A stretch of DNA of 64,000 nt from Escherichia coli (GCF_024700885.2 NZ_CP117016.1); one strand, 5' to 3'. Counted from the first letter of the stretch, positions 44,248 to 60,140 are shown. Made by a program: numbers and translations. Notes: generated by a model not told the origin, from the letters alone.

Positions 44248-44940
44248 TCAGAATAAAGCTAACTGTTCCGGAGACTCGCGCTCTGACTTCAGCCATGCCT
44301 CAAACAATCGCCCGAACTGAACGGCAAGCCGGATTTCATTAATCAGATTACATGTGAATATAACTGTCAGAAATATCATGATAAAATAAACGAGAGAAAA
44401 TAACATAAATAAAACTGTATTACTCCCCGACAGAAATGGCATGGTTGTAAGTATCCCTCCCGTAAACTGAACACATAAAGAAAACACCGAAAACACTGCT
44501 ATCATCCAGTAACTTTTATGCACACGACGAGTATTAACAGTAAATTTGCCATCTAAAAATATACCGACAAAAGAATATTTAAGAAAACAATGCAGTCTGT
44601 TATCCACTGAGCTGATATTTCTGTCGGATATAAAACAAATCAGCTTATTACAACACCACGTCGGGAGATATATCCCCATCTGTTCATAACAGTATTTTAT
44701 TCTTACCAGTGTATTTTTCGTTGCTGGTTCTTTTGTCAGTTTGTCAATACGGGCAAGAATGGACTCCTTTTCAGATACAGGAATTTTTTCAAATCTGTAT
44801 TTCCTGATATTCGGCGCATAGCCATAATGCTGCACAAACCATTTGACAAGAGGAATAATAATGCCCGACAGAAGCGGTAACACCAGATTTTTGACTATAT
44901 CCTGAAATGTTTTGTCCTGAAGATAATGCATGACAGACAT
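44248..44940 (-). CDS. AT-rich membrane protein of unknown function inserted between tssA and tssF
   Basis: About 230 aa from MSVMHYLQDK; C-terminal TM helices (YWMIAVFSVFSLCVQF..., VLFMLFSLVYFIMIFLTVIF); start overlaps the tssA stop and the stop lies 7 nt before the tssF start; composition is much more AT-rich than its neighbours. Confidence 0.45.
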   Translation of the reverse strand: MSVMHYLQDKTFQDIVKNLVLPLLSGIIIPLVKWFVQHYGYAPNIRKYRFEKIPVSEKESILARIDKLTKEPATKNTLVRIKYCYEQMGIYLPTWCCNKLICFISDRNISSVDNRLHCFLKYSFVGIFLDGKFTVNTRRVHKSYWMIAVFSVFSLCVQFTGGILTTMPFLSGSNTVLFMLFSLVYFIMIFLTVIFTCNLINEIRLAVQFGRLFEAWLKSERESPEQLALF

Positions 44941-44941
44941 C

Positions 44942-46540
44942 TCATGAACTTCCCGAATTGCACAACACAGCAGCTCTGGCAGCATCAATGGCGATGAGCC
45001 CGGCAAGAAGATGTTCCATATCAGGCTGCAGACGCACCCTGTCACTTTCAGTTTTTGCGGACTTCATACGCAACAGTTTCAGGCGGCGGGCTTTTACCTC
45101 AAATACCAGTTCAGGTTCCCATTGTGACAGGGTCAGCCGGGTTGCACGTTCATCCAGCTCCGCAAGCAGGTGCAGGGCAAGGTCATTTTTTCCTGTCTGT
45201 TCGGCAACACGGGCCATCAACAGGCGCAGTAGCCAGTTGCTGCGGTCAGACTGAATACCGGGACGTGCCTGTAACCAGCTTAAAGCGGCTTCTGTTCCTT
45301 CATTATCCGCAATCTGCAGGGCTTCCGGCTCAAGAGATAAAATGTCGTTATCTCCGGGAGCTGCCGTTATCGTTACAGAAGGTTCTTCCGCCCAGCGTTC
45401 ACCACACTCCATCACCTGCTGCTGTATCCAGCTCAGCGTCACGTCATCGGCAAACGGCATGCCGTCGTTAAAAGCCAGTGTCTCAAGCCCCGGCAGGCGC
45501 AGAAGCAATCCTTTCAGGTCATACTGAATAATGGCAGCATAATTTTCTTTTCCGGTCTGCAACAGCGCCTGATGAATATACCACTGCAGGTCCAGCCACA
45601 GATGACTGGCTCCCCGGGCAAACATATCGTCACACTGTTCAAGCAGTGACAACCAGTTCTGCTGCAGATACAACCGTTTCAGTGACGCACGCCGGTCCGG
45701 CCCCGGTGGGGCAATACGGGTCCGTCCATCAGCAGATAACGGCGGTAACTGATGCAGCGTGTCATGCCGGACGCTTTTCATCAGTCGATGAGCCGCCAGC
45801 CAGCCCTCAGGCTGGTCACGCAGATATTTTGCCAGAACACGGGCCTGTGACAGCAGTTCCTGTCCGGAGGTGATGGCAGATAATGCCATGACGCTGCCGG
45901 ATGTTACCGTCGGTGCCGGCGCGGCAGCCTCCTGAGGCACCACTGCATCAACACCACCGGCCTTCATCAGGCGATTTTCAAGTGCCTGATATAACCCGTT
46001 CAGCACCGGGGCGGAAGCCTCATCCGTAAAGGTCTGTTCTGCCAGCCACAGCGCCCCGGCAATGCGCAGGGTATCCGCCTTCACCACCTCCGGATACAGA
46101 GACAGACTGTCCAGTATGCGGGCGCTGCATAACCACTCCAGCGCCGCCTTCCTGGCCCGTGACCGTTGTGGATGCAGGTGCTCTCCAAAACGCTGCAACA
46201 AACCGGTCAGCAGCTCCAGACCGTCGGCCAGACCTTTTTCACCATCCTGCCGCAGACGGGCCCAGATATACCAGGTCGCCACCCGGATATCTTTGGTTCT
46301 GGTGGTCAGTAATTTTTCTGCAAGCTGGCTGACAATTCCGGCATCGGCTCCGGAGAGTTTATTGACCTCTTCACGCATCTGCTGAAAATCATCATCGTAC
46401 CCCGCATCATCACCTGCGGGATTATCTGGCGTCACGGGAGCAAGCCATTTATCCCACAGCGCAATACGCACCTGAGCCGGTTCAGCCACATCCCGGGGTG
46501 TCGTCTGGCATGCGCTGAGGAGCGAATGAATGGAAGCCAT
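44942..46540 (-). CDS. tssA: T6SS protein TssA (ImpA N-terminal domain)
   Basis: 532 aa; ImpA-N motif PDNPAGDDAGYDDDFQQMREEV...KDIRVATWYIWARL. Confidence 0.8.
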   Translation of the reverse strand: MASIHSLLSACQTTPRDVAEPAQVRIALWDKWLAPVTPDNPAGDDAGYDDDFQQMREEVNKLSGADAGIVSQLAEKLLTTRTKDIRVATWYIWARLRQDGEKGLADGLELLTGLLQRFGEHLHPQRSRARKAALEWLCSARILDSLSLYPEVVKADTLRIAGALWLAEQTFTDEASAPVLNGLYQALENRLMKAGGVDAVVPQEAAAPAPTVTSGSVMALSAITSGQELLSQARVLAKYLRDQPEGWLAAHRLMKSVRHDTLHQLPPLSADGRTRIAPPGPDRRASLKRLYLQQNWLSLLEQCDDMFARGASHLWLDLQWYIHQALLQTGKENYAAIIQYDLKGLLLRLPGLETLAFNDGMPFADDVTLSWIQQQVMECGERWAEEPSVTITAAPGDNDILSLEPEALQIADNEGTEAALSWLQARPGIQSDRSNWLLRLLMARVAEQTGKNDLALHLLAELDERATRLTLSQWEPELVFEVKARRLKLLRMKSAKTESDRVRLQPDMEHLLAGLIAIDAARAAVLCNSGSS

Positions 46541-49500
46541 CAGTCAGTCTCCTCCACGGTATCCCCGGCATCTTCGTCATTGCCTGTAAACGCTGACGTG
46601 CCGGAGAGTTCGAAAACCGTTTCCGGCAGAACAAAATTGCGGAGTTTCAGCAATACAAGCGGCCCTTCCCCCGCTTCAGTTCGCAGTGTGTAATTCAGCA
46701 TACGACCGTCCTGCGCCTGCCAGCTCAGGCTCCAGCCACTGGCAACGCCCGGTGCGGCTTTCCGTCGGGCCATCTCAAGCAGACGTATCAGCCCCCAGCT
46801 TCCCGGCAGGTCTGCATACTGACGGGTACCGGCCTGAGTGCTTACCCAGCTTAAACTGGCGCCAGGTGCTTCCGTATCAGCCGGCCAGGTAAATCGCTTC
46901 CATACCGGCATCTGATTAACATAAATCAGTTTCTGATTATCGGTTATCAGCGTCGTCTGCATCACACCGGCAGCAGTTCCCGGGCGCAGCTCAAAATGCA
47001 GCCCCGCGTTACCTGTGGTGAACGCCACATCCGCTATTTCACTCAGGGTATTGATGGCTTTCAGAAACGCAGGGTTGAATGTCAGTCCCCGGGTATTAAT
47101 GGTATCAGGTACCCAGCGACTGCCTTCCCTGTGCAACACACCACTCAGGTTATTCTGCAGGAAACGGGCAATACGTCCCGTGTCCGTATTCAGGTATTTT
47201 GCCAGCAGGGGAAGCGAAGCATCGCTGCTGACATTTTTAAACGGATAACGCCCGGAAAATGCATTATTCCAGCCATCCACCACCGCAGTACGCCACCGGG
47301 CATTCAGACTTTCTGCCGCGGGCGTAAGAACCTGCTGCCACGCCTGCTCCATCGGGCGAACAAAGACCGTCTGTCCGAAGCCATACCACTCCTGTCCGAG
47401 TCCGGCAGCGGTCAGGCTGCCGTAATCCCGGGTATCGGTTAAATCAACCGATTTCCCCTGCAATACTGTCTGTGCCAGCAACTGCATCATGGCCTGCGGG
47501 TCAGAAGAGCCGGCAATCTGTTGCAGACGCAGACGAACCTGTGTCACCCGGGTCAGATATGTCTGCAGATTCAGCATATCCGCACTGTTGTTCTGATTAT
47601 CCATCAGTGCAAGCACCGGCCCGAAAGTCGTCGCCAGAGGACCGTGAAGCCGGCTTTCCGGTACTGCCACTGGCTGTTTTTCCTGTGAAAGCAGGTTTCT
47701 GGCAGATTTAACCAGTGAATCAGTAACCGCTTCCCGGGGCTGGCCAGTACACCCCTGAACCGCCAGCGTATTCATCAGAGCAACCAGGGGGGACTGGCGC
47801 ACATCAGCCATAAGCGTCAGTTGCTCTGTCACATCAGACAGCGTCTGAGCTTTACGCAAGTGCAGACTGTTCAGAAAATTCAGCCAGGCATTACCAAAAT
47901 CAGCAAAATAGCGCGTTGTCAGGCGCTGTCTGAGTGCTTCCGGCGATACCGGTGACGGTGCCTTCTGCCTGCCATCCGTCAGTACCCAGTCCATTTCTTC
48001 ACGACGCTCATTAATCACGGTGTCTATCGACGGCAATACGGCCTCTTCCCAGGCCTGGCGGGTAAACATACCGGGAACCACTTCATCCGTAAAAAAGAGG
48101 CGGGAGACATCAGTATCACCGGTCATATCCGTCAGACGCATATCCGCAAACTGATGTGCCACCCGTGCCAGCATTTTCTGATACAGCATGGCATCGCTGT
48201 TCTGTGTTCCCAGATGGCGAAGCAGCAGAGTTCTGCTCTGGCTGACCAGCTCTTCATCAGCCGTCAGCTTCCACTGAGGATGAGTAATAATCCCGGAGGC
48301 ATAATACGCCAGCAACGTCGGGCCATTAGCCTGCCAGAAAACGGCACTCACACCGTCACGCTGTGGCCATTCCCGCATGAGCGTACGACTGAACCAGGCG
48401 GGCTCCATATGTTGCGGTTGCGCCAGCATCAGATACAGTCTGAGCTGGTCATATGCGGGTTTTGCCATTTTCCCCCGCTGCGGGCTGTCCGGAGGAAGAC
48501 GAATAAATGTCCTGAGCTGCTGCTCAAGATGAGCAGCAGCGGCATCACGCAGTAAAAGATGTGCATTTTGTGCATAAAGGGGCATTACGACCGCGAGCAG
48601 GTCTGCATTCTGATTCATACCGGCCCGCAGGTACCATGGCGCCCCGTGCTCCTCCCGGTACTGAAGGCGGGCCAGGGATTTCTGCAGATTCAGCAACGCC
48701 TGCAGACGTTCTGCAGGAGACAGTTGCTGGTTCTGAGCCGGACGAATCTGTTCCTGTACTTCAGCAACCAGACTCCGGTTTGCCAGAAAGGAAACCACCA
48801 TTCCTGTTCCCTGAGCCATCATCAGTATGGCCGCCATAACGGCCAGACTTCTGCGCCAGTTATGACCTGTGCGGGAAGGCTGTAGCCGGACAGGTAATTG
48901 CTGCACTGTCTCCGGCAACGCCTCCCAGCGGTTATCCATTCGCCAGCGATGTCTGACACTTCGTTCACCGCCGACAGTTGCCGGACTGAAAACAATACCC
49001 GCCAGCAACAACTGACGGTATGGACGGAGTAATACGGATAATGGCTCCACCACAGCATCAATATTTCGTCTGAATCGCTCTGCCAGCGACAACAAAAAAT
49101 AATACCGAGGGGCACAGCATATCTGCTGTATCCCCTGAGCAACAAGCCCGGGGAGCATGGCCTGTAGTTGTGCTTTCAGTTTGTCAGAACTACATTCTGC
49201 TGGCAGAAGGCATCCCACGGGCTGAGTAATACGCCCTCGCTCATCCGGACTCTCCTGCAGTGACCAGACATACAGCGGCAGACGCCAGCCAAGGCGCTCA
49301 CAACATGAACTGACCGCACGGGAAACCCTGTCCAGGGCATCTTCTGTCAGTGGTGCGGATAATGTTTCACTCAGTCCGGAAGTTACCCAGACAATGCCAT
49401 CAGCAGGCCGGTAACGCAGACGGCGTAACGCAGCCAGCCAGTCTGCGTTTTCCGGCTGCGAGGGGTCTCCTCCCCAGAGAAGCAATGTCCCCTGCTCTTC

Positions 49501-49929
49501 CTGCCAGAACTGTTCTGTCAGGCCCGGGGTCAACAACTCAACCTCAGAGGCGGTACCTGTTATCAACAGAATGCGTATCTTACGTCCCCAGAATCTGCCA
49601 TACTGGCGCCGCAGAGTATGACGAATATCCTGAACAGTAACATAGCGCGGTGGCGTCTGAGCCAATCGCTCTTCATCGTCAGGTAACCTTTGCTCCTTAC
49701 GGGCCCTGCGTCGATATGTCAGTTCCTGAACATATTTTTTCATCACAGGCAGGTAACAGACAAAGAGCACCCCCAGACTCAGCAATATCAGCAGTAGTAT
49801 TTGATCCCGGCGTGTTTCTGCCCCCAGATATGCTCCATATCGGGTTATCAGCCACCAGAGCGCAGCCACACCAATAAATACAATCCCCGGTCGCCCAAAG
49901 CGACCAGACAGACAGGCCAGTTTATTCAT
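46540..49929 (-). CDS. tssM: T6SS membrane-complex subunit TssM (IcmF-like)
   Basis: 1129 aa; N-terminal TM helices; IcmF-like size and context. Confidence 0.85.
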   Translation of the reverse strand: MNKLACLSGRFGRPGIVFIGVAALWWLITRYGAYLGAETRRDQILLLILLSLGVLFVCYLPVMKKYVQELTYRRRARKEQRLPDDEERLAQTPPRYVTVQDIRHTLRRQYGRFWGRKIRILLITGTASEVELLTPGLTEQFWQEEQGTLLLWGGDPSQPENADWLAALRRLRYRPADGIVWVTSGLSETLSAPLTEDALDRVSRAVSSCCERLGWRLPLYVWSLQESPDERGRITQPVGCLLPAECSSDKLKAQLQAMLPGLVAQGIQQICCAPRYYFLLSLAERFRRNIDAVVEPLSVLLRPYRQLLLAGIVFSPATVGGERSVRHRWRMDNRWEALPETVQQLPVRLQPSRTGHNWRRSLAVMAAILMMAQGTGMVVSFLANRSLVAEVQEQIRPAQNQQLSPAERLQALLNLQKSLARLQYREEHGAPWYLRAGMNQNADLLAVVMPLYAQNAHLLLRDAAAAHLEQQLRTFIRLPPDSPQRGKMAKPAYDQLRLYLMLAQPQHMEPAWFSRTLMREWPQRDGVSAVFWQANGPTLLAYYASGIITHPQWKLTADEELVSQSRTLLLRHLGTQNSDAMLYQKMLARVAHQFADMRLTDMTGDTDVSRLFFTDEVVPGMFTRQAWEEAVLPSIDTVINERREEMDWVLTDGRQKAPSPVSPEALRQRLTTRYFADFGNAWLNFLNSLHLRKAQTLSDVTEQLTLMADVRQSPLVALMNTLAVQGCTGQPREAVTDSLVKSARNLLSQEKQPVAVPESRLHGPLATTFGPVLALMDNQNNSADMLNLQTYLTRVTQVRLRLQQIAGSSDPQAMMQLLAQTVLQGKSVDLTDTRDYGSLTAAGLGQEWYGFGQTVFVRPMEQAWQQVLTPAAESLNARWRTAVVDGWNNAFSGRYPFKNVSSDASLPLLAKYLNTDTGRIARFLQNNLSGVLHREGSRWVPDTINTRGLTFNPAFLKAINTLSEIADVAFTTGNAGLHFELRPGTAAGVMQTTLITDNQKLIYVNQMPVWKRFTWPADTEAPGASLSWVSTQAGTRQYADLPGSWGLIRLLEMARRKAAPGVASGWSLSWQAQDGRMLNYTLRTEAGEGPLVLLKLRNFVLPETVFELSGTSAFTGNDEDAGDTVEETD

Positions 49930-51070
49930 TCTGGTTTCCTGATGTAACAGTACTGATAAAATGTTCTTCTCCGGATGAGAATAAAGTCAGGAGAGAATCA
50001 TTACCAAGACAGACCAGATCGGCTGCCAGAGCAGTAAGCAGCCACGGAGCAGCAGGTCCCGGGATACCGCACCATTTTTCCAGTAACATACGTCCGGACG
50101 GTTCCCATCCGGCACCATACTGGTTTCCAATAGTCATCAGCGGTGCAGCAATCTTTTCCCAGTGATAACAGTCTCCCAGTACACGAGCGGTACGACAGGC
50201 TGCTGTCTGGGTTTCAAGGAAAAGTGTGAATTCATCATTAAACTTGTTGATATCCAGCGACATCGGGCGTAGCAGACGGGCTGAATGCGACAGATTATAT
50301 TTTTGCGCAACATCATCGCTGGTCAACAAAAGTGCAGCCAGTCCGTCAGAGTATGTATTTCCCCCATTAAGCTGTATTACCAGTATCAAATCCACAGTCA
50401 GCACTGGTTGTTTCAGACGCTCATCAACCCACCCCATGGAAAAGTCAGGAGTAACCTCGATATTGTCAGGAACGACGCGTTGGGGAAATAACGCTTCCCA
50501 TGCAGAAACAAAAGCAGATCTGATTTCAGAATCAGGCTGATCGGTTATCAGCGTCACATTTACAGGGAGAGCGGCAGGTAACTGACAAAATTTATCCGTT
50601 ATCTCCCTAAGCAAGACACGTAAAGAGGCTTCAACCTTATGCCCACTGTCAGAAAGATAATCTATTTTCTTTACAAGGCCGTACTGCAGAGGCAATTCAT
50701 CACAAAGAGTAGCTACCGTTATTTTATCAGGCAAATAAACACAACTGGCAGTAATAACAAGATACCTTTCGGCCCAGGATTCCCACTGTTTCTGAGCATA
50801 CTCCCCCTCTTTTTTAAGAAACAAATGTTCATCCATCTGGTTGCTCCACTGCCAGTGTCGCAGGCAAAACAGGAAAAACCAGCACCCCGGAGGAGTCAAT
50901 GCAAGCCACCAGATACTGAAATTATTTAATGCTTTCACATATTCTGATGCCCGGATAATAAACAACAGAGCACCAACAACAGCCATAAATGCCCCTGTCA
51001 TAAACCACAACATCATTGATGGTTTATGAGGTAATTCTGTTGATAATGATTTTGTTCTGCTCCATCCCAT
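49922..51070 (-). CDS. Hypothetical membrane protein (382 aa), T6SS-linked
   Basis: Two N-terminal TM helices followed by a soluble domain; translationally coupled between PAAR and tssM. Confidence 0.45.
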   Translation of the reverse strand: MGWSRTKSLSTELPHKPSMMLWFMTGAFMAVVGALLFIIRASEYVKALNNFSIWWLALTPPGCWFFLFCLRHWQWSNQMDEHLFLKKEGEYAQKQWESWAERYLVITASCVYLPDKITVATLCDELPLQYGLVKKIDYLSDSGHKVEASLRVLLREITDKFCQLPAALPVNVTLITDQPDSEIRSAFVSAWEALFPQRVVPDNIEVTPDFSMGWVDERLKQPVLTVDLILVIQLNGGNTYSDGLAALLLTSDDVAQKYNLSHSARLLRPMSLDINKFNDEFTLFLETQTAACRTARVLGDCYHWEKIAAPLMTIGNQYGAGWEPSGRMLLEKWCGIPGPAAPWLLTALAADLVCLGNDSLLTLFSSGEEHFISTVTSGNQNE

Positions 51071-51073
51071 GTT

Positions 51074-51340
51074 TTATCCTATTGCACATTCCGGTGCACT
51101 GGATATAACCTTACACCCACACAGACATTTACATCCATCAATCACAACAGCTCTTCCATCAGATATCCATTCAGGAGAGCCCTCCACAATAGGATTGGTA
51201 CCATGTCCGGAAACAGGGCAACTAACCATATCTCCAACAAGAGCTACTTTTTTACCATCGACAATCATGGTTGAAGATGCAGAAATAACTTTACCACCAT
51301 GTGTGGTATTATCACCAAGCAATACAAAACCTTTAGACAT
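51074..51340 (-). CDS. PAAR-like spike-tip protein
   Basis: 88 aa; GDMVSCPVSGHG...IDGCKCLCGCKV pattern of PAAR-like Cys/His proteins. Confidence 0.7.
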   Translation of the reverse strand: MSKGFVLLGDNTTHGGKVISASSTMIVDGKKVALVGDMVSCPVSGHGTNPIVEGSPEWISDGRAVVIDGCKCLCGCKVISSAPECAIG

Positions 51341-51371
51341 AATACTCTCAAAAATAAATTTTCACTTTGAG

Positions 51372-52049
51372 TCACCAGTTGCCGTAGGGATAAATTTTCC
51401 CTTTGATAAAATCTGGTGTATCACCGTAATAAACATATCCATCTGGATGTTTAGTAACCCCCTTACACATCTTCATTTTATCACCCGATACTGTAGTAAT
51501 TTTAGCATCCAACTGAGGTACCACCGGATTACCGCGATCTCCCAGCCAGACTCTTACCTTCCCTTCAGGAGCCAGACCAATAATCATCGTTGAACGATAA
51601 TAGGTTTCGTTCCAGCGGTTGTCTGCGTAAGGCGTAACCATCTGCTCCCAGGTCCCTTTTTTAAAAAAAATCAGAGTTTCATAACTCTTTTTATCAATTA
51701 TTGAATCCCAGCAAAAACGCAACATCAGGGGTAATGCTTTCCCCTTGTTATAATACGACTCAGTCGCGCCCAGATGGTCATTCCAGCGCCCTACACTGAC
51801 CTGACTCGGCTCGGTATTATCAAGATACTGATAAGTCGTCTTATAACCTTCCCCGTCCACCATCAACGCCTGGGTGGCCAGCGCAGGCAGAGCCTTTGGA
51901 TAAATAAAGAGAAATTTCCATTCATCATAGGGTAATTTTTTATAACCCCATTCAGTCTTATCCAAATCAGCATACCGTGAGCTAACCGAATTACACCCAG
52001 TTAACAATGCCAATAATGGTGCGATAAAAATGATTTTATCTCTGGTCAT
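51372..52049 (-). CDS. tli1: Lipoprotein, candidate Tli1-type immunity protein for the adjacent phospholipase
   Basis: 225 aa; signal peptide with lipobox (LLTGC); immediately downstream of the DUF2235 effector gene. Confidence 0.55.
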   Translation of the reverse strand: MTRDKIIFIAPLLALLTGCNSVSSRYADLDKTEWGYKKLPYDEWKFLFIYPKALPALATQALMVDGEGYKTTYQYLDNTEPSQVSVGRWNDHLGATESYYNKGKALPLMLRFCWDSIIDKKSYETLIFFKKGTWEQMVTPYADNRWNETYYRSTMIIGLAPEGKVRVWLGDRGNPVVPQLDAKITTVSGDKMKMCKGVTKHPDGYVYYGDTPDFIKGKIYPYGNW

Positions 52050-52068
52050 GTATTGTCATCCTGTAGCG

Positions 52069-53751
52069 TTAAACACCAGACATCATAACTTTAGTATTTT
52101 TTACTGCGTTATCATTCAATCGCTGCTGATCATCCATGTACCATACAGAACGAATCCAGCGATCATTTGGTTTATTCGGAAAAACGAACGCCTTATTACC
52201 TTTAGGACCAAAGCGATGGATAAAAATCTCTCCCGTTGTAGGATCCACCCATAAATTACCATCAGACTCAATATTCCAGTTAGCGGAACAATGGGTGTAT
52301 TTTCCGATAATATACAACTCTTCCTCAGTAAAAGCCTGAGGCTCTTGCCCCAAACGTACCGCTTTTCCCTGAGCAATGGCTTTGTCAGCAAGAAATATTA
52401 GTTCAGATGGAAGTTGTAACTCAGTATTTGTTTGTCGAATTGGTTCAAACAATACCCCTGCTTCCTGAGCAGCATCCAGCATCACACGCAGGCAAACATT
52501 AGCCCAGTCATTAGGTACTGCCATACGCTCAAAAAATACTGCGGCTCCCACCTGCTTTTGTATCACACCAGCCCGACGTTGATTGCTGTTGTTCACACCT
52601 ATGGAACGAATTTTGGTGGTTAGTTTTCCATGAGGCAAAATATGTTTTAAGGCTGGCAGAGTCATCAACATTTTTCTGACTTGCTCTGCTTTACGGTATA
52701 CTCGCGTATCCATTTCTCTGGTATCGTCACTGACAATTTCAAATTCCGGGCAACTCAGAAACAGACTTTCATTTTCCTGCAGAGGTGAACCTACCGGATT
52801 GTAACCACCTCCAATATCTGAATGCGCCCCCGGTAAAGCCAGTTCGGGCCACATACCTTTAATACTGTTCAGGCTGAAATTATATCGGTATTCATTCATT
52901 GCAGTAATCTGGAAAACTTTCTTCGCGACTGAAGGACGCAACTCCAGCTTTACTCCCGGGTTGCTACGTCCATTAATATCGAAGAAATTACTGATTCCAC
53001 CAATAGCTGCGACAGTATCAAAAAGCCCCAGAAAACGTACTTCACCAGAAGGTTTACCATCATAAAAATCGCCTCTGAGCCCTTTAGCAATAGCTCTGGC
53101 TATAGCAGGATCCTGTTCCATAACCCGATTGGCAAAGTGCCTTGCCGCCGCTGCTCCCCGGCTAAAACCAAAAACATCAAACTGGATTTTTGCGATACAA
53201 AAATCAGGACTTAAATTGAACCCCATAAATTCTGATAACGCCTGGGTGATTCGTTCCATTGCCTCGTCGGTTTTCGTCACCACACCTTCAAATATATCCA
53301 GAATACTGGTGCCTAATCCCATGCCTATGACTGAATCTGCTTCACCAGCCGCAGTCCCTATCCCGGAAATGTAAGTCTTAATTTGAGCTGACGTCTGGTC
53401 TTTTTTAAGTACCTGATCTGGATGATAGAGTATATTAAGCCAGTGAATATTGGAATAATATCCACGATAACTGCCATTCGAGATACTGTTCTTGTTAATT
53501 TCTTTAAGAAAGTCCTCACAGCTTTGTGCATCTTTTTGATTTACCCCCTGTCTGGCTGCACTACACTCATTAAATTTCATCAGGCGAGATGCTGTATTCT
53601 CCCGATTGTTTCCGGTACCATCGAAAAATATGCCAATAGTTAAAGTCACACCCCGCGCCGGTTTTTTCTTTGCAACAACAACTTTCCAGTCATTATGAAT
53701 ACTGGTTTTATGGGTGGCATCTGTTACGTCATATCCCTGATATTTTGTCAT
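52069..53751 (-). CDS. tle1: Tle1-family T6SS phospholipase effector (DUF2235)
   Basis: 560 aa; DUF2235 signature IGIFFDGTGNN and lipase GxSxG motif (GFSRG); start overlaps the vgrG stop. Confidence 0.75.
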   Translation of the reverse strand: MTKYQGYDVTDATHKTSIHNDWKVVVAKKKPARGVTLTIGIFFDGTGNNRENTASRLMKFNECSAARQGVNQKDAQSCEDFLKEINKNSISNGSYRGYYSNIHWLNILYHPDQVLKKDQTSAQIKTYISGIGTAAGEADSVIGMGLGTSILDIFEGVVTKTDEAMERITQALSEFMGFNLSPDFCIAKIQFDVFGFSRGAAAARHFANRVMEQDPAIARAIAKGLRGDFYDGKPSGEVRFLGLFDTVAAIGGISNFFDINGRSNPGVKLELRPSVAKKVFQITAMNEYRYNFSLNSIKGMWPELALPGAHSDIGGGYNPVGSPLQENESLFLSCPEFEIVSDDTREMDTRVYRKAEQVRKMLMTLPALKHILPHGKLTTKIRSIGVNNSNQRRAGVIQKQVGAAVFFERMAVPNDWANVCLRVMLDAAQEAGVLFEPIRQTNTELQLPSELIFLADKAIAQGKAVRLGQEPQAFTEEELYIIGKYTHCSANWNIESDGNLWVDPTTGEIFIHRFGPKGNKAFVFPNKPNDRWIRSVWYMDDQQRLNDNAVKNTKVMMSGV

Positions 53752-56273
53752 TCTGTTTCTCCATGAATTTTTACCTTCCCAAACTCAACTTTTACTACTG
53801 ACGGAATGGAGGTGTTGACTGGCGCTGTTTTACCATTTTCATCGGTGATCCCCTGTAGAATATCACCTTCAGCCGTTGTTAATCGATAAGGCGTCGAAGG
53901 TTGCGGCACTCCCGCTTCATCGGTAAGAATAAAACCGCCCCCAAACCCTCGCGGCATTTCAACAGACGCAATATCAAGACTTGTTGGTCCCATCTTCTGC
54001 ATATTCGTGCTTTTTAACAGAATCTGTCCCGGGCATCCCAGCTCAATATTTCCACCGCTTAGTTTGATATAAGCTCCACCACATGCCAGTATCAGTTCCT
54101 GATTAGCAGAAACAGTCACTTTGCCCTCAGAACTTTGAATATCAAGATTCTGTTGGGAACTCATTGACAAATCGTCACTTTGAGCCTGAATATTTACCCG
54201 CCCTTTTGCTGCTAACAGTTGCATCCCCTGGTTTCTGCTCAACAGGCTAACAGCACCTTCTGCTACAACTGTAAATGACTGCCCGGCAGTAATATCAGTG
54301 TTATCTCCCGACATTATGCCCACGCTTTCACTACCTGAAGCAATTCGTAACGCCCGCGCACTAACCATGCCAATCCCATCAGGAGCATGCAACAGCATTC
54401 CCGGCGCAGTGAGATCTGTTAGTGATGCATTCAACCGTTGCTGACAACTTATATCTCCCTGAGTAGCATTTGCAGCAGTTGCGGCCTTCGCCATACTTCG
54501 GGCCAGAGATAATGCCTGCTCCAATTGGCGGATAGCTTCATCCATATCCAGCATCTTTCCTTGTGCCTGAGGCTGCATATCTGCACTGATAAATATTCCT
54601 TTTCCTCCCCGGATACTTATCCAGTCATCAGTCCTCAGCTCAGCGCCTTCTCCCCTGAGTTCCCGGGAGGCATCAACGTTATGGCCAAGATTAAGTTGTG
54701 TCTTACCGCCATACTCGGTACTGAGCTTGATATGCTCCTCACCGCGTTTGTCCTCCATCCGCAACTTGTTATTTGCCGGCGTACGGATAACATTGCGCGT
54801 ACCGTTCTTATCGGTAACGTGATCAACATGACGTGAATCATGCAGGGCATGCGCTATATAGGGACGATCCGGATCACCTTCCTCAAAAGCAATGGCCACT
54901 TCCGTTCCCTGAATCAGCGGAAAATGAAAACCATAAGCATCACCACTGTAGGGTTTGGCCAGACGTACCGGCATACTTTCCTGTCCCGGATTTTTATCAT
55001 CACGGTCAGCATCAAATTTCACCCGGTACATGCCTGAAGCATCCTGCCAGGCGTAGATATCCCCTTCTTTTGCACTGGTCACACGGGCCGTCATGGTCCC
55101 GGTGATTTTCGGACGAGTAAGTAACGGTGGTCGCCAGCAGACAATCTCGCTGTAAGGAACAGCACTCAGCATCACCTGTAGCGCAGATTTCCGGCTACCG
55201 GTGAACAGAAGCTGCGTGAGCAGAACCGGCTCCTGTAACGGTGCAGGCAACACTGGTGGAGTACTGTCAGTAATAGTCAGCACCTGTGCCGGTAACAGAC
55301 TGGCATCGGTGCTTTTACCTGTGATACGTGTTTGCTCAGCCAGAAAACGCTCGTGATCGAGCCGGGCCCAGAAGTTAGCCGTCTCCGGCGCAGGGTCAAT
55401 TTTATCGCCCCTTTCTGTATGGCGTGGCCGGTAATGATAAACCTCGCCATAACTGGTGTCGTAACCTTCTCCACGGGTCATGTCCGCCGGTACGGACATC
55501 AGTATGTTCTGGGCCTCGCGGTGGTTATAGTCGTTCGTGATAACACGGCTTTCCACCACCCGGTGCTCCACATTCAATGCCCATACTGAGTCTGTGCCAC
55601 TGTCACTCATACCGGACGGGCTGTTAACGGGCAGTGTTTTATCAAATATCAACGCCGCCTGGACGTCACCGAAGTGGATCACCTCTGTCTGCGCATCCGG
55701 GTGCAACGTAAAGAAGTAAAAAATGCCCACTTCTGCCAGCAGGCGCTGGATAAATCTCAGATCGCTTTCCTGATACTGGTTAATCTGTTCGCGCTTCGGA
55801 TATGTCCTTTTGAGGCTGAACTCATACTCCCAGCCTTTCAGCCCGTGTTCCGTCAGGATTTGCTCCACCACCTCAGGCACTGATTTATTAACGAAAAAAC
55901 GGTGTGTACGGAACTGTTTATCCAGCAGGGAAATGAAAGGTTTAAGTGTGATCCGGTATTGTGCCTGGTCCTCAGAGCCAGAAATACGTCTGAAATCAGT
56001 AATAACACCGTGCACTTTTTTCTGTTCAGTCAGGCTTTCCAGTAATCCGGTTCCCATTATCAGGGTTGCGGATTTACGCAGGAACCAGGCAGCATCAGGA
56101 TACCTGTCCGTACTGGTAAAAATGATGTCATACCGGTAAATCTTACTTATGCCTTCAGTTCCGCTGAAATCTTCAACATCCAGCGATGACGGGCAGGAAG
56201 GTATATCCAGTCTGTAGCGGTTCAGGGTTCCCACCCCGGATAAAACATTTTGCAGGGAGTCAGTGAGATTCAT
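53748..56273 (-). CDS. vgrG: T6SS spike protein VgrG with C-terminal extension
   Basis: 841 aa; conserved YQESDLRFIQRLLAEVGIFYFF and an extended C-terminus of the kind used for effector docking. Confidence 0.9.
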   Translation of the reverse strand: MNLTDSLQNVLSGVGTLNRYRLDIPSCPSSLDVEDFSGTEGISKIYRYDIIFTSTDRYPDAAWFLRKSATLIMGTGLLESLTEQKKVHGVITDFRRISGSEDQAQYRITLKPFISLLDKQFRTHRFFVNKSVPEVVEQILTEHGLKGWEYEFSLKRTYPKREQINQYQESDLRFIQRLLAEVGIFYFFTLHPDAQTEVIHFGDVQAALIFDKTLPVNSPSGMSDSGTDSVWALNVEHRVVESRVITNDYNHREAQNILMSVPADMTRGEGYDTSYGEVYHYRPRHTERGDKIDPAPETANFWARLDHERFLAEQTRITGKSTDASLLPAQVLTITDSTPPVLPAPLQEPVLLTQLLFTGSRKSALQVMLSAVPYSEIVCWRPPLLTRPKITGTMTARVTSAKEGDIYAWQDASGMYRVKFDADRDDKNPGQESMPVRLAKPYSGDAYGFHFPLIQGTEVAIAFEEGDPDRPYIAHALHDSRHVDHVTDKNGTRNVIRTPANNKLRMEDKRGEEHIKLSTEYGGKTQLNLGHNVDASRELRGEGAELRTDDWISIRGGKGIFISADMQPQAQGKMLDMDEAIRQLEQALSLARSMAKAATAANATQGDISCQQRLNASLTDLTAPGMLLHAPDGIGMVSARALRIASGSESVGIMSGDNTDITAGQSFTVVAEGAVSLLSRNQGMQLLAAKGRVNIQAQSDDLSMSSQQNLDIQSSEGKVTVSANQELILACGGAYIKLSGGNIELGCPGQILLKSTNMQKMGPTSLDIASVEMPRGFGGGFILTDEAGVPQPSTPYRLTTAEGDILQGITDENGKTAPVNTSIPSVVKVEFGKVKIHGETE

Positions 56274-56802
56274 GATTTATCACTCCACGAACAGCTCTGA
56301 AAGGGTATTTGCAGGGACCATGACGTTCGCTCTGGTCAGTCTGAACATTACTGCTTTTCAGCTCACCGTATGGCCTCACGACCTCCATGTCATTAAGCGG
56401 GATATCGAAAATACACCCGTCGGCAATCTCTATGCCGGCAACCATGATGCGCGGTGTGTCCTTATCGCACTCAGAGTGCAGAACAGACCTGACAATGAAC
56501 TGGCCTTTATCAGGAAAAAGACAGAATGAAGGCGGAATGCACAGCTGGCCGTTCACGATACGAAGCGAGGGTTCAGATGTAATTTGCCGCTCCCTGAATC
56601 GGGTTCCCCGTGGAGCGATGGAAACGCTGACTGGCTGGTAGTCCTCTGGCTCCGGGACACTGAAACACACATTGTCGCCTCTTGTGCTGACCGTTACTGT
56701 TTCATCAAACCGATAATAATCCCCGCGTCCGGGGCATCCTGTCAGTAACGTCAGACAGAGCAGTAAAGCAGAACGATAACGAAAGGCTCTTATTTTTACC
56801 AT
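56260..56802 (-). CDS. Lipoprotein of unknown function (180 aa)
   Basis: Signal peptide with lipobox (LTLLTGC); several Cys; between the HExxH protein gene and vgrG. Confidence 0.45.
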   Translation of the reverse strand: MVKIRAFRYRSALLLCLTLLTGCPGRGDYYRFDETVTVSTRGDNVCFSVPEPEDYQPVSVSIAPRGTRFRERQITSEPSLRIVNGQLCIPPSFCLFPDKGQFIVRSVLHSECDKDTPRIMVAGIEIADGCIFDIPLNDMEVVRPYGELKSSNVQTDQSERHGPCKYPFRAVRGVINHESH

Positions 56803-57371
56803 GGGAACCCCCGCAACGTGCTGGTATACAGGCTGCGAATAACATACTCAGACATATTTCCGTCCAGTGTGATATCACCGTCCCTTCTCATATCACACCA
56901 TGTCCCGTATCCTTCAGCCTGCAAAGTAAAATGATCAGCAATAATTTGTGCCTGCTGCTCCATGGGATATTCGCTTAACAGACGCCCGTCCAGAACATAA
57001 CGGTAATTCACCGCCCAACTGAACATCCCCCGACCGATGACATTCATTCCCTTTTCACGCTGCCAGACATGCGCCATTTCATGAATAAACATATGCTGAT
57101 AAAAGGGAACGCTGAGTGAATAATCATCCCGATAGTGCTCACGGAAATAAATCTTACCATCGGGGGGCATGGCAGTTTGCTTATTCTGAAGACCAAAAGG
57201 CAGAAAACTGTCATGGTGGATCCAGACCTTTTCATAAGGGATTGTCAACCTGAATACCAGCCTCGCCAGCGCAATCTCTCCCGGCGTCAGTAACCGCAAT
57301 GAGCCTTCTTCCCTTTGATTTTTACCTGCGCCAGCGTCCTGATTTCTGCCATAGCCTGTCATAACGCGCAT
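56796..57371 (-). CDS. HExxH-motif protein (putative zinc metallopeptidase-like), 191 aa
   Basis: HEMAHVWQ motif; located between clpV and the lipoprotein gene. Confidence 0.45.
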   Translation of the reverse strand: MRVMTGYGRNQDAGAGKNQREEGSLRLLTPGEIALARLVFRLTIPYEKVWIHHDSFLPFGLQNKQTAMPPDGKIYFREHYRDDYSLSVPFYQHMFIHEMAHVWQREKGMNVIGRGMFSWAVNYRYVLDGRLLSEYPMEQQAQIIADHFTLQAEGYGTWCDMRRDGDITLDGNMSEYVIRSLYTSTLRGFPW

Positions 57372-60025: not shown

Positions 60026-60140
60026 TCACTGTCAGGAGACCGTCAGGCACGCTACCGCCCTTCGCCGTAACCCAGGCGCATCAGGTCTGTGTTCAGGATT
60101 GAGAATTCTTTCTTCAGCACCCGCCAACAGATGCTGAAGA

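Follow-up and report, generated by a model that had tools for sequence, protein, structure and literature searches.

The VgrG1-Tle1-Tli1-PAAR module of an Escherichia coli Sci-1 type VI secretion cluster and a possible PAAR-linked accessory protein in the inner membrane

We analyzed a stretch of Escherichia coli DNA 64,000 nucleotides (nt) long (GCF_024700885.2 NZ_CP117016.1; hereafter, the window), which contains part of a type VI secretion system (T6SS) cluster. The subjects here are the spike-and-cargo genes of this cluster, which match those of enteroaggregative E. coli (EAEC), and a gene for a 382-amino-acid (aa) membrane protein, protein X, that lies between the PAAR gene and tssM. The original prediction had placed a string of five genes in this region, from an extended vgrG to the gene for the 382-aa protein. 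All five open reading frames (ORFs) were found where they were predicted, on the minus strand. With tssM, which follows, they are the following.

53748-56273, minus strand: vgrG1, 841 aa, the T6SS spike, with a gp27/gp5 core, DUF2345, and a C-terminal transthyretin-like (TTR) extension
52069-53751, minus strand: tle1, 560 aa, a DUF2235 protein, the phospholipase A1 cargo effector Tle1-EAEC (EC042_4534)
51372-52049, minus strand: tli1, 225 aa, a lipoprotein immunity protein of the outer membrane, present as a single copy
51074-51340, minus strand: paar, 88 aa, a class-1 PAAR tip protein (EC042_4537)
49922-51070, minus strand: gene X, encoding the 382-aa inner-membrane protein, EC042_4538 by gene numbering
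46540-49929, minus strand: tssM, the core subunit of the membrane complex, given for context (an ORF call; RefSeq "ImcF-related family protein")

The genes are closely spaced. The vgrG1 stop codon and the tle1 start codon overlap in ATGA. The tli1 gene is 19 nt from tle1 and 31 nt from its neighbor on the other side, the gap between paar and gene X is 3 nt, and the stop of gene X overlaps the start of tssM by 8 nt. The region is 100% identical to the DNA of E. coli MLI114, with zero mismatches across the 26 kilobases compared, and 99.6% identical to the DNA of EAEC 042; it was matched in 73 of 5,426 complete E. coli genomes. Because the MLI114 and 042 genomes annotate all of these genes, they are real genes and not chance ORFs. 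For VgrG, Tle1, PAAR, and protein X, a single protein accession each is shared by MLI114 and 042.

The Pfam matches of VgrG, Tle1, Tli1, and PAAR all exceeded the curated cut-offs. VgrG (WP_001054503.1) carries the domains Phage_GPD, Phage_base_V, T6SS_Vgr, and DUF2345 and matches TIGR01646 at 324 bits. It thus has the gp27/gp5 core, the DUF2345 domain, and the cargo-docking C-terminal extension that define its family. All 841 of its residues are identical to chain A of PDB entry 6SJL, the cryo-electron microscopy structure of the EAEC VgrG1-Tle1 complex. Likewise, all 560 residues of Tle1 (WP_000170556.1, the same accession as in 042) are identical to chain D of that entry, so the suggested comparison with a characterized Tle1 gave 100% identity. 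RefSeq names the two genes that follow vgrG1 "T6SS effector phospholipase Tle1-EAEC" and [quoted passage not shown] The assignment of the locus to the VgrG-docked Tle1/Tli1 type is therefore supported.

Tle1 scores 60.2 bits on PF09994 (T6SS_Tle1-like_cat), whose cut-off is 27. The two lipase motifs that had been read from the sequence are present, FDGTGN at residues 43-48 and the GxSxG motif, as GFSRG, at residues 195-199. The catalytic triad is intact and consists of Ser197 (in GFSRG), Asp245 (in FDTV), and His310 (in GAHSDIGGG). All three motifs align to the solved Tle1-family structure 9J3F; with the Pseudomonas aeruginosa structure 4O5P, the Ser and Asp motifs align in one stretch and the His motif in a second, weak stretch. 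Because the triad motifs are present and align with those of solved Tle1 proteins, the objection that the DUF2235 protein might lack a catalytic triad fails.

PAAR (WP_000033410.1, the accession of EC042_4537 in 042) matches PAAR_motif (PF05488) at 84.1 bits against a cut-off of 27. Its translation has H14, C41, H46, and C74, the four residues by which EC042_4537 binds zinc while capping the needle (PMC10715212). In the same study, this PAAR was essential for killing, for baseplate positioning, and for sheath assembly. The protein had been described as PAAR-like; the PAAR part of that description stands, but "like" can be dropped, since this is the bona fide, essential PAAR EC042_4537.

Tli1 matches PF11153 (DUF2931) at 87.8 bits against a cut-off of 22.2, and its gene adjoins tle1. 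It has the lipobox LLTG|C, with Cys19. The number of copies differs among genomes: there is one tli1 in the window and in MLI114, and there are two in tandem in 042 and in most related genomes. Correspondingly, the tli1 region of the window is 821 base pairs (bp) shorter than that of 042, in which the pair occupies 4451-5949 of locus L002. The Tli1 of the window has zero differences from the PAAR-proximal copy of 042, EC042_4536. The tle1-proximal copy, EC042_4535, is identical to EC042_4536 over residues 1-200 and differs from it at 13 positions within residues 201-219. Unequal crossing-over of the repeats would yield just this single-copy arrangement. The predicted lipoprotein immunity candidate thus holds as to its family, its lipobox, and its RefSeq name (Tli1-EAEC), but not as to identity with the tested immunity protein: EC042_4535 was the copy that protected prey (PMC7245790), and the window carries the other type.

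Taken together, the region is almost certainly the spike-and-cargo section of an enteroaggregative-type Sci-1 (T6SS-1) cluster, with the mechanism of that module. Judged by its sequence, the module is one already known, the prototype EAEC VgrG1-Tle1-Tli1-PAAR set itself. In the literature on these identical proteins, VgrG1 is a trimeric spike with up to three Tle1 molecules docked on its sides. PMC10715212 describes a VgrG C-terminal TTR domain completed by Tle1's N-terminal beta-strand, and phospholipase A1 activity that is inhibited while Tle1 is bound to VgrG; the activity of Tle1-EAEC is summarized in PMC6730261. Contraction of the Sci-1 sheath is described in the same body of work as carrying Tle1 into the periplasm of a rival, where membrane phospholipid is degraded. 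According to PMC6730261, Tle1 is bound 1:1 and with nanomolar affinity by the outer-membrane lipoprotein Tli1, which blocks it; in this literature, Tli1 protects the producer and its kin. The re-identification of a known effector module adds nothing new about Tle1, Tli1, VgrG, or PAAR. What remains of interest is protein X, the single Tli1 of the EC042_4536 type, and a metallopeptidase/lipoprotein pair that is described below.

Protein X is EC042_4538 by numbering because PAAR is EC042_4537. Its accession, WP_001403985.1, is named "KPHS_23130 family T6SS system protein" in one recent genome and "hypothetical protein" elsewhere. Homologues of 377-391 aa are common in the Enterobacterales, but the family is small and compact: when 1.84 billion cluster representatives were searched exhaustively with a profile, only 218 members had E values up to 0.001. 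NCBIfam release 20 had no match for X. Pfam had no match for X or for 33 of its homologues at E values up to 10, nor for 10 distant homologues at E values up to 0.1. Searches of PDB sequences with X and with a profile of the 33 homologues returned only noise. No function is attached to the KPHS_23130 name, whose locus tag turned up in a single paper, a clinical genomics study of Klebsiella. In the library searched, EC042_4538 is mentioned nowhere, and a preprint on the T6SS1 of Shiga toxin-producing E. coli is silent on the gene.

AlphaFold2 gave a confident model of X from an alignment of 33 homologues (pLDDT, the predicted local distance difference test, 87.8; pTM, the predicted template modeling score, 0.79). 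In the model, an N-terminal transmembrane (TM) hairpin, with helices at about residues 19-42 and 53-71, leads into a helical stalk that extends to about residue 100, and residues 103-377 form an alpha/beta domain with a thiolase/ketosynthase fold. The best match of this domain among solved structures is the T6SS adaptor Tla3, with which it shares the fold. Positive charges before the first helix, together with the modeled hairpin, suggest a topology in which both termini are inside and the domain is cytoplasmic. Trp and Phe are abundant in the second hydrophobic segment.

The fold raises the possibility that X has condensing activity, acting as a ketosynthase or thiolase in the synthesis or modification of a lipid. 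Among 80 aligned homologues there were zero invariant Cys or His residues; because of this, the catalytic residues of condensing enzymes are absent from the family. The residues that are invariant are M1, W3, P14, W22, P60, W96, W99, R102, D177, and Q233, followed by S241, D242, L244, D252, L267, R268, P269, M270, Q288, and D300. Asp177 follows the strand at residues 170-176, where the active-site Cys would be expected (a reading of secondary structure, not a residue-level superposition). Identity between X and its structural matches of this fold is 7-12%, and no ketoacyl-synthase or thiolase Pfam model matched X even at an E value of 10. An active enzyme is thus extremely unlikely; on the model and the alignment together, the domain is predicted to be a catalytically dead thiolase/ketosynthase-fold domain.

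To see what X is inherited with, we used 79 X loci from the Enterobacterales and Pseudomonas, obtained in one scan of species-representative genomes. PAAR is directly upstream of X in 76 of the 79, usually with a gap of 3 nt, and of the 77 loci whose sequence extends far enough to show the next gene, 75 have tssM directly downstream. Only 7 of the 79 carry Tle1. The cargo between vgrG and PAAR otherwise varies and includes class-3 lipases (Lipase_3), proteins with Pyocin_S domains, a LysM protein, and proteins of no family. In one cluster the order is clpV-PAAR-X-tssM, with neither vgrG nor cargo between clpV and PAAR. PAAR-X pairs without an adjacent tssM occur in three loci, L011, L039, and L044. 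In L011 (6744-8419), PAAR and an X homologue of 472 aa with extra C-terminal hydrophobic segments form the end of an orphan vgrG island; the VgrG of this island has a C terminus with HExxH. In Hafnia alvei L059 (4092-4846), a truncated X-like ORF of 167 aa comes after a second PAAR. When a hidden Markov model of the 80 X homologues was used to search the ORFs of the window and the retrieved loci, down to a length of 120 aa, it found no DUF2875 relative and no full-length paralogue, only the truncated L059 ORF. PAAR is, on this survey of gene order, the most constant apparent partner of X.

These neighborhoods bear on the grouping of X with the Tle1/Tli1 module, which the original prediction had proposed. 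X might be a helper specific to Tle1, either a chaperone or adaptor for loading it or an additional immunity factor: it is encoded in the same codirectional, tightly packed string as tle1 and tli1, and the closest solved structure is that of a lipase adaptor, Tla3. However, the 79 genomes hold X in the same slot and only 7 of them have Tle1; the other cargoes beside it include the Lipase_3, Pyocin_S, and LysM proteins; and the cluster in which nothing separates clpV from PAAR keeps PAAR-X-tssM all the same. In addition, Tle1 binds VgrG directly, with no adaptor (PMC10715212). A Tle1-specific role is therefore very unlikely. Because X occupies the same slot between PAAR and tssM whatever the effector, and Tle1 is in so few of the loci, X lies outside the Tle1/Tli1 cargo, and the grouping was mistaken in this respect.

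X could instead be cargo itself, a PAAR-dependent, membrane-inserting toxin carried on the spike tip. Genes right after PAAR often encode effectors, the hydrophobic helices of X resemble those of some membrane-targeting toxins, and in L011 the X homologue ends an orphan vgrG island. Against this, the gene that follows is tssM (overlapping by 8 nt here and adjacent in nearly every locus), which leaves no candidate for an immunity gene. The synteny and length of X are conserved from the Enterobacterales to Pseudomonas, unlike those of effectors, which turn over fast, and the C-terminal two thirds of X are about 99% identical between E. coli variants with unrelated cargo. An inactive thiolase fold with no conserved Cys or His also argues against a toxin. 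TM-bearing T6SS effectors normally need an Eag-type chaperone; no gene for one turned up in the neighborhoods that were viewed, although no systematic search was made. We consider the effector explanation quite unlikely. In sum, X as an active ketosynthase, as a Tle1-specific adaptor, or as an effector was rejected on the evidence of catalytic residues, context, and conservation.

Comparison of the window cluster with another E. coli cluster, one with a Lipase_3 effector, placed the right-hand edge of the variable island inside gene X:

50589-50738: right-hand edge of the variable vgrG-cargo-PAAR island, within gene X, at about codons 112-161

From 50589 down, a stretch comprising the 3' two thirds of gene X together with tssM and tssA, the two clusters are 97.6% identical in DNA sequence. 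Identity falls to about 70% across PAAR and the first (5') third of gene X, and the cargo has no detectable DNA similarity. The X proteins follow the same pattern, with 35-75% identity over residues 1-140, 15% over residues 141-160, and 95-100% from residue 181 on, and the PAAR proteins differ at 25 of 88 positions. In the profile from 50000 to 54500, the GC fraction changes at the same point from about 0.55 to 0.41-0.47, the island being low. Because DNA identity, protein identity, and GC all shift there, the edge of the island is inside gene X. The hairpin and stalk, together with the beginning of the X domain, travel with PAAR and VgrG. Such covariation of the N-terminal part would fit a functional match to the spike, but the edge could be a mere recombination junction.

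The same comparison bears on a further explanation, that X is an accessory of the membrane complex that acts with TssM and TssL in assembly or stabilization, its position next to PAAR being an accident of operon order. The conserved C-terminal part of X is inherited with tssM and tssA and not with the variable island, X overlaps and precedes tssM (in all but two of the informative genomes), and it is membrane anchored, as are TssM and TssL. On the other side, PAAR-X pairs persist without an adjacent tssM in L011, L039, and L044, and L059 has PAAR with its truncated X-like ORF. We also considered whether X is a duplicated TssM N terminus; BLASTP of X against TssM gave nothing significant, and this lack of sequence similarity likewise counts against a role with TssM. 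This explanation is somewhat doubtful, but it overlaps with a PAAR-linked role, and sequence alone cannot separate the two.

The reading that we prefer, tentatively, is that X is a PAAR-linked, membrane-tethered, nonenzymatic accessory or adaptor of the T6SS built on a thiolase fold. X would be anchored in the inner membrane with its noncatalytic domain in the cytoplasm, would be co-inherited with PAAR, and would handle the spike, with its PAAR tip, where the TssJLM membrane complex faces the cytoplasm. More generally, X may represent a class of T6SS accessories with a Tla3-like fold that load or position the PAAR-capped spike at the TssM complex, from the Enterobacterales to Pseudomonas, and whose N-terminal third covaries with the island; we offer this generalization as a conjecture, with rather less than even confidence. 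If so, X is a plausible missing piece in the positioning of the PAAR-tipped spike against the membrane complex. Its gene belongs to one of the most thoroughly dissected T6SS clusters and is found beside PAAR in nearly every related cluster.

The explanation as a whole, a Sci-1 Tle1 module together with X as a PAAR-linked accessory, is very probable, although the role of X, taken by itself, is put forward tentatively, as stated above. Several points weigh against one part of it or another. For X, coproduction of VgrG, Tle1, and PAAR in E. coli BL21, with no further protein, suffices for their complex to form (PMC10715212); because the complex was reconstituted without X, X is not needed for its formation in vitro. 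Three of the loci have X without PAAR upstream. The link between X and Tla3 is at the level of the fold only. We infer the location of the X domain from the positive-inside rule and the AlphaFold2 hairpin, and the second TM segment is only moderately hydrophobic (Kyte-Doolittle about 1.26, calculated by hand). For the module, neutralization of Tle1 by the Tli1 of the window, which equals EC042_4536, is inferred, since EC042_4535 was the copy tested; the second tli1 copy is reported in a 2025 preprint to be truncated in the laboratory strain. Finally, the T6SS machine of MLI114, the single genome with 100% identity to the window, may be inactive if an insertion in its tssK is real: the annotation marks this gene as frameshifted, with an extra 1 nt at gene position 338 relative to EAEC 042 (L001 25144-26482). 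By extrapolation, the site of this insertion would be just past the end of the window, at about 64066.

Some of the X loci have tandem arrays of ORFs upstream of PAAR and X. L013 (2463-5003) has three ORFs of about 256-258 aa, L063 (2503-5858) has three of 346-375 aa, L016 (3967-5488) has three of 169 aa, and L046 (2071-5027) has four Tli1-like copies, one of them broken. The PAAR gene is missing in L013 and L063. The four arrays look like expanded immunity-gene arrays.

Directly upstream of vgrG1 are two more genes that the original prediction had not listed:

56796-57371, minus strand: VgrG2b-like zinc metallopeptidase (HEMAH), 191 aa, EC042_4531, a candidate second antibacterial effector
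56260-56802, minus strand: lipoprotein, 180 aa, EC042_4532, candidate immunity protein to the metallopeptidase; it overlaps both neighboring genes

The 191-aa protein matched the effector domain of P. aeruginosa VgrG2b (PDB 6H56) with a phmmer E value of 7.9e-20, and its HEMAH motif aligned with HEMTH. The metallopeptidase is part of a VgrG fusion in P. aeruginosa and is free-standing in the window. The 180-aa lipoprotein has the lipobox LLTGC and a Pfam match to DUF7480; it scored 82.9 bits, with the cut-off at 43, for NF045617, the NCBIfam family named "putative T6SS immunity periplasmic lipoprotein." In Salmonella arizonae, SARI_02727 and SARI_02726 were validated in 2026 as an antibacterial T6SS effector-immunity pair (PMC12992299). 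As in the window, the effector there is small (189 aa versus 191 aa) and a gene for a small lipoprotein is next to it. Because of the 6H56 match, the NF045617 lipoprotein, and the validated homologous pair in S. arizonae, the cluster probably carries a second toxin.

Three other features of the window were noted. A consensus ops element for RfaH, GGCGGTAGCGTG, lies between hcp and clpV at 60048-60059 on the minus strand; it matches "ops1" of the EAEC sci1 cluster (bioRxiv 10.1101/2025.02.08.637259). A second ops match, GGCGGTAGTTTG, is far away, at 6738-6749 on the minus strand. About 0.08 matches would be expected by chance. Between tssA and tssF, an ORF at 44248-45045 on the minus strand corresponds to a 230-aa hypothetical protein in MLI114 and has no Pfam or NCBIfam match; the equivalent slot in the Pantoea cluster L009 has a gene with a YidX_N match.

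Of the known systems, the closest is the Sci-1 module of EAEC 042 (EC042_4533-4537; PDB 6SJL, 6SK0, and 6SKI). The VgrG, Tle1, PAAR, and X sequences are the same, as are the gene order and the junctions. The differences are in tli1, present twice in 042 and once in the window, where the EC042_4536 type was retained (the 821-bp difference), and in TssM, whose accession in MLI114 differs from that in 042.

The Tle1 of P. aeruginosa (PA3290, 4O5P) shares with the EAEC protein the DUF2235 core and the aligned GxSxG, FDTV, and PGxHSDxGGGY motifs, and both are phospholipases that act in the periplasm and are neutralized by an outer-membrane lipoprotein. Similarity between PA3290 and the Tle1 of the window is, however, local only (E value, 1.9e-7). 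P. aeruginosa Tle1 needs a DUF4123 adaptor (Tla1) and has DUF3304 immunity proteins (among them Tli1a), whereas EAEC Tle1 docks directly on the TTR domain of VgrG, and its immunity protein is of the DUF2931 family.

For protein X, the comparisons are at the level of structure. With the thiolase/beta-ketoacyl synthase superfamily it has the fold in common, but not the catalytic Cys/His apparatus. With Tla3 (PA0259, DUF2875, PDB 8YZ3), a lipase adaptor of P. aeruginosa, the X domain again shares a fold and no relationship at the sequence level, as judged from the lack of a DUF2875 Pfam match and of a PDB profile match. Tla3 is soluble, is specific to Tle3, and binds the TTR domain of VgrG2b. X differs from Tla3 in its predicted TM hairpin at the N terminus, in its independence of the effector, and in its fixed position between PAAR and tssM.

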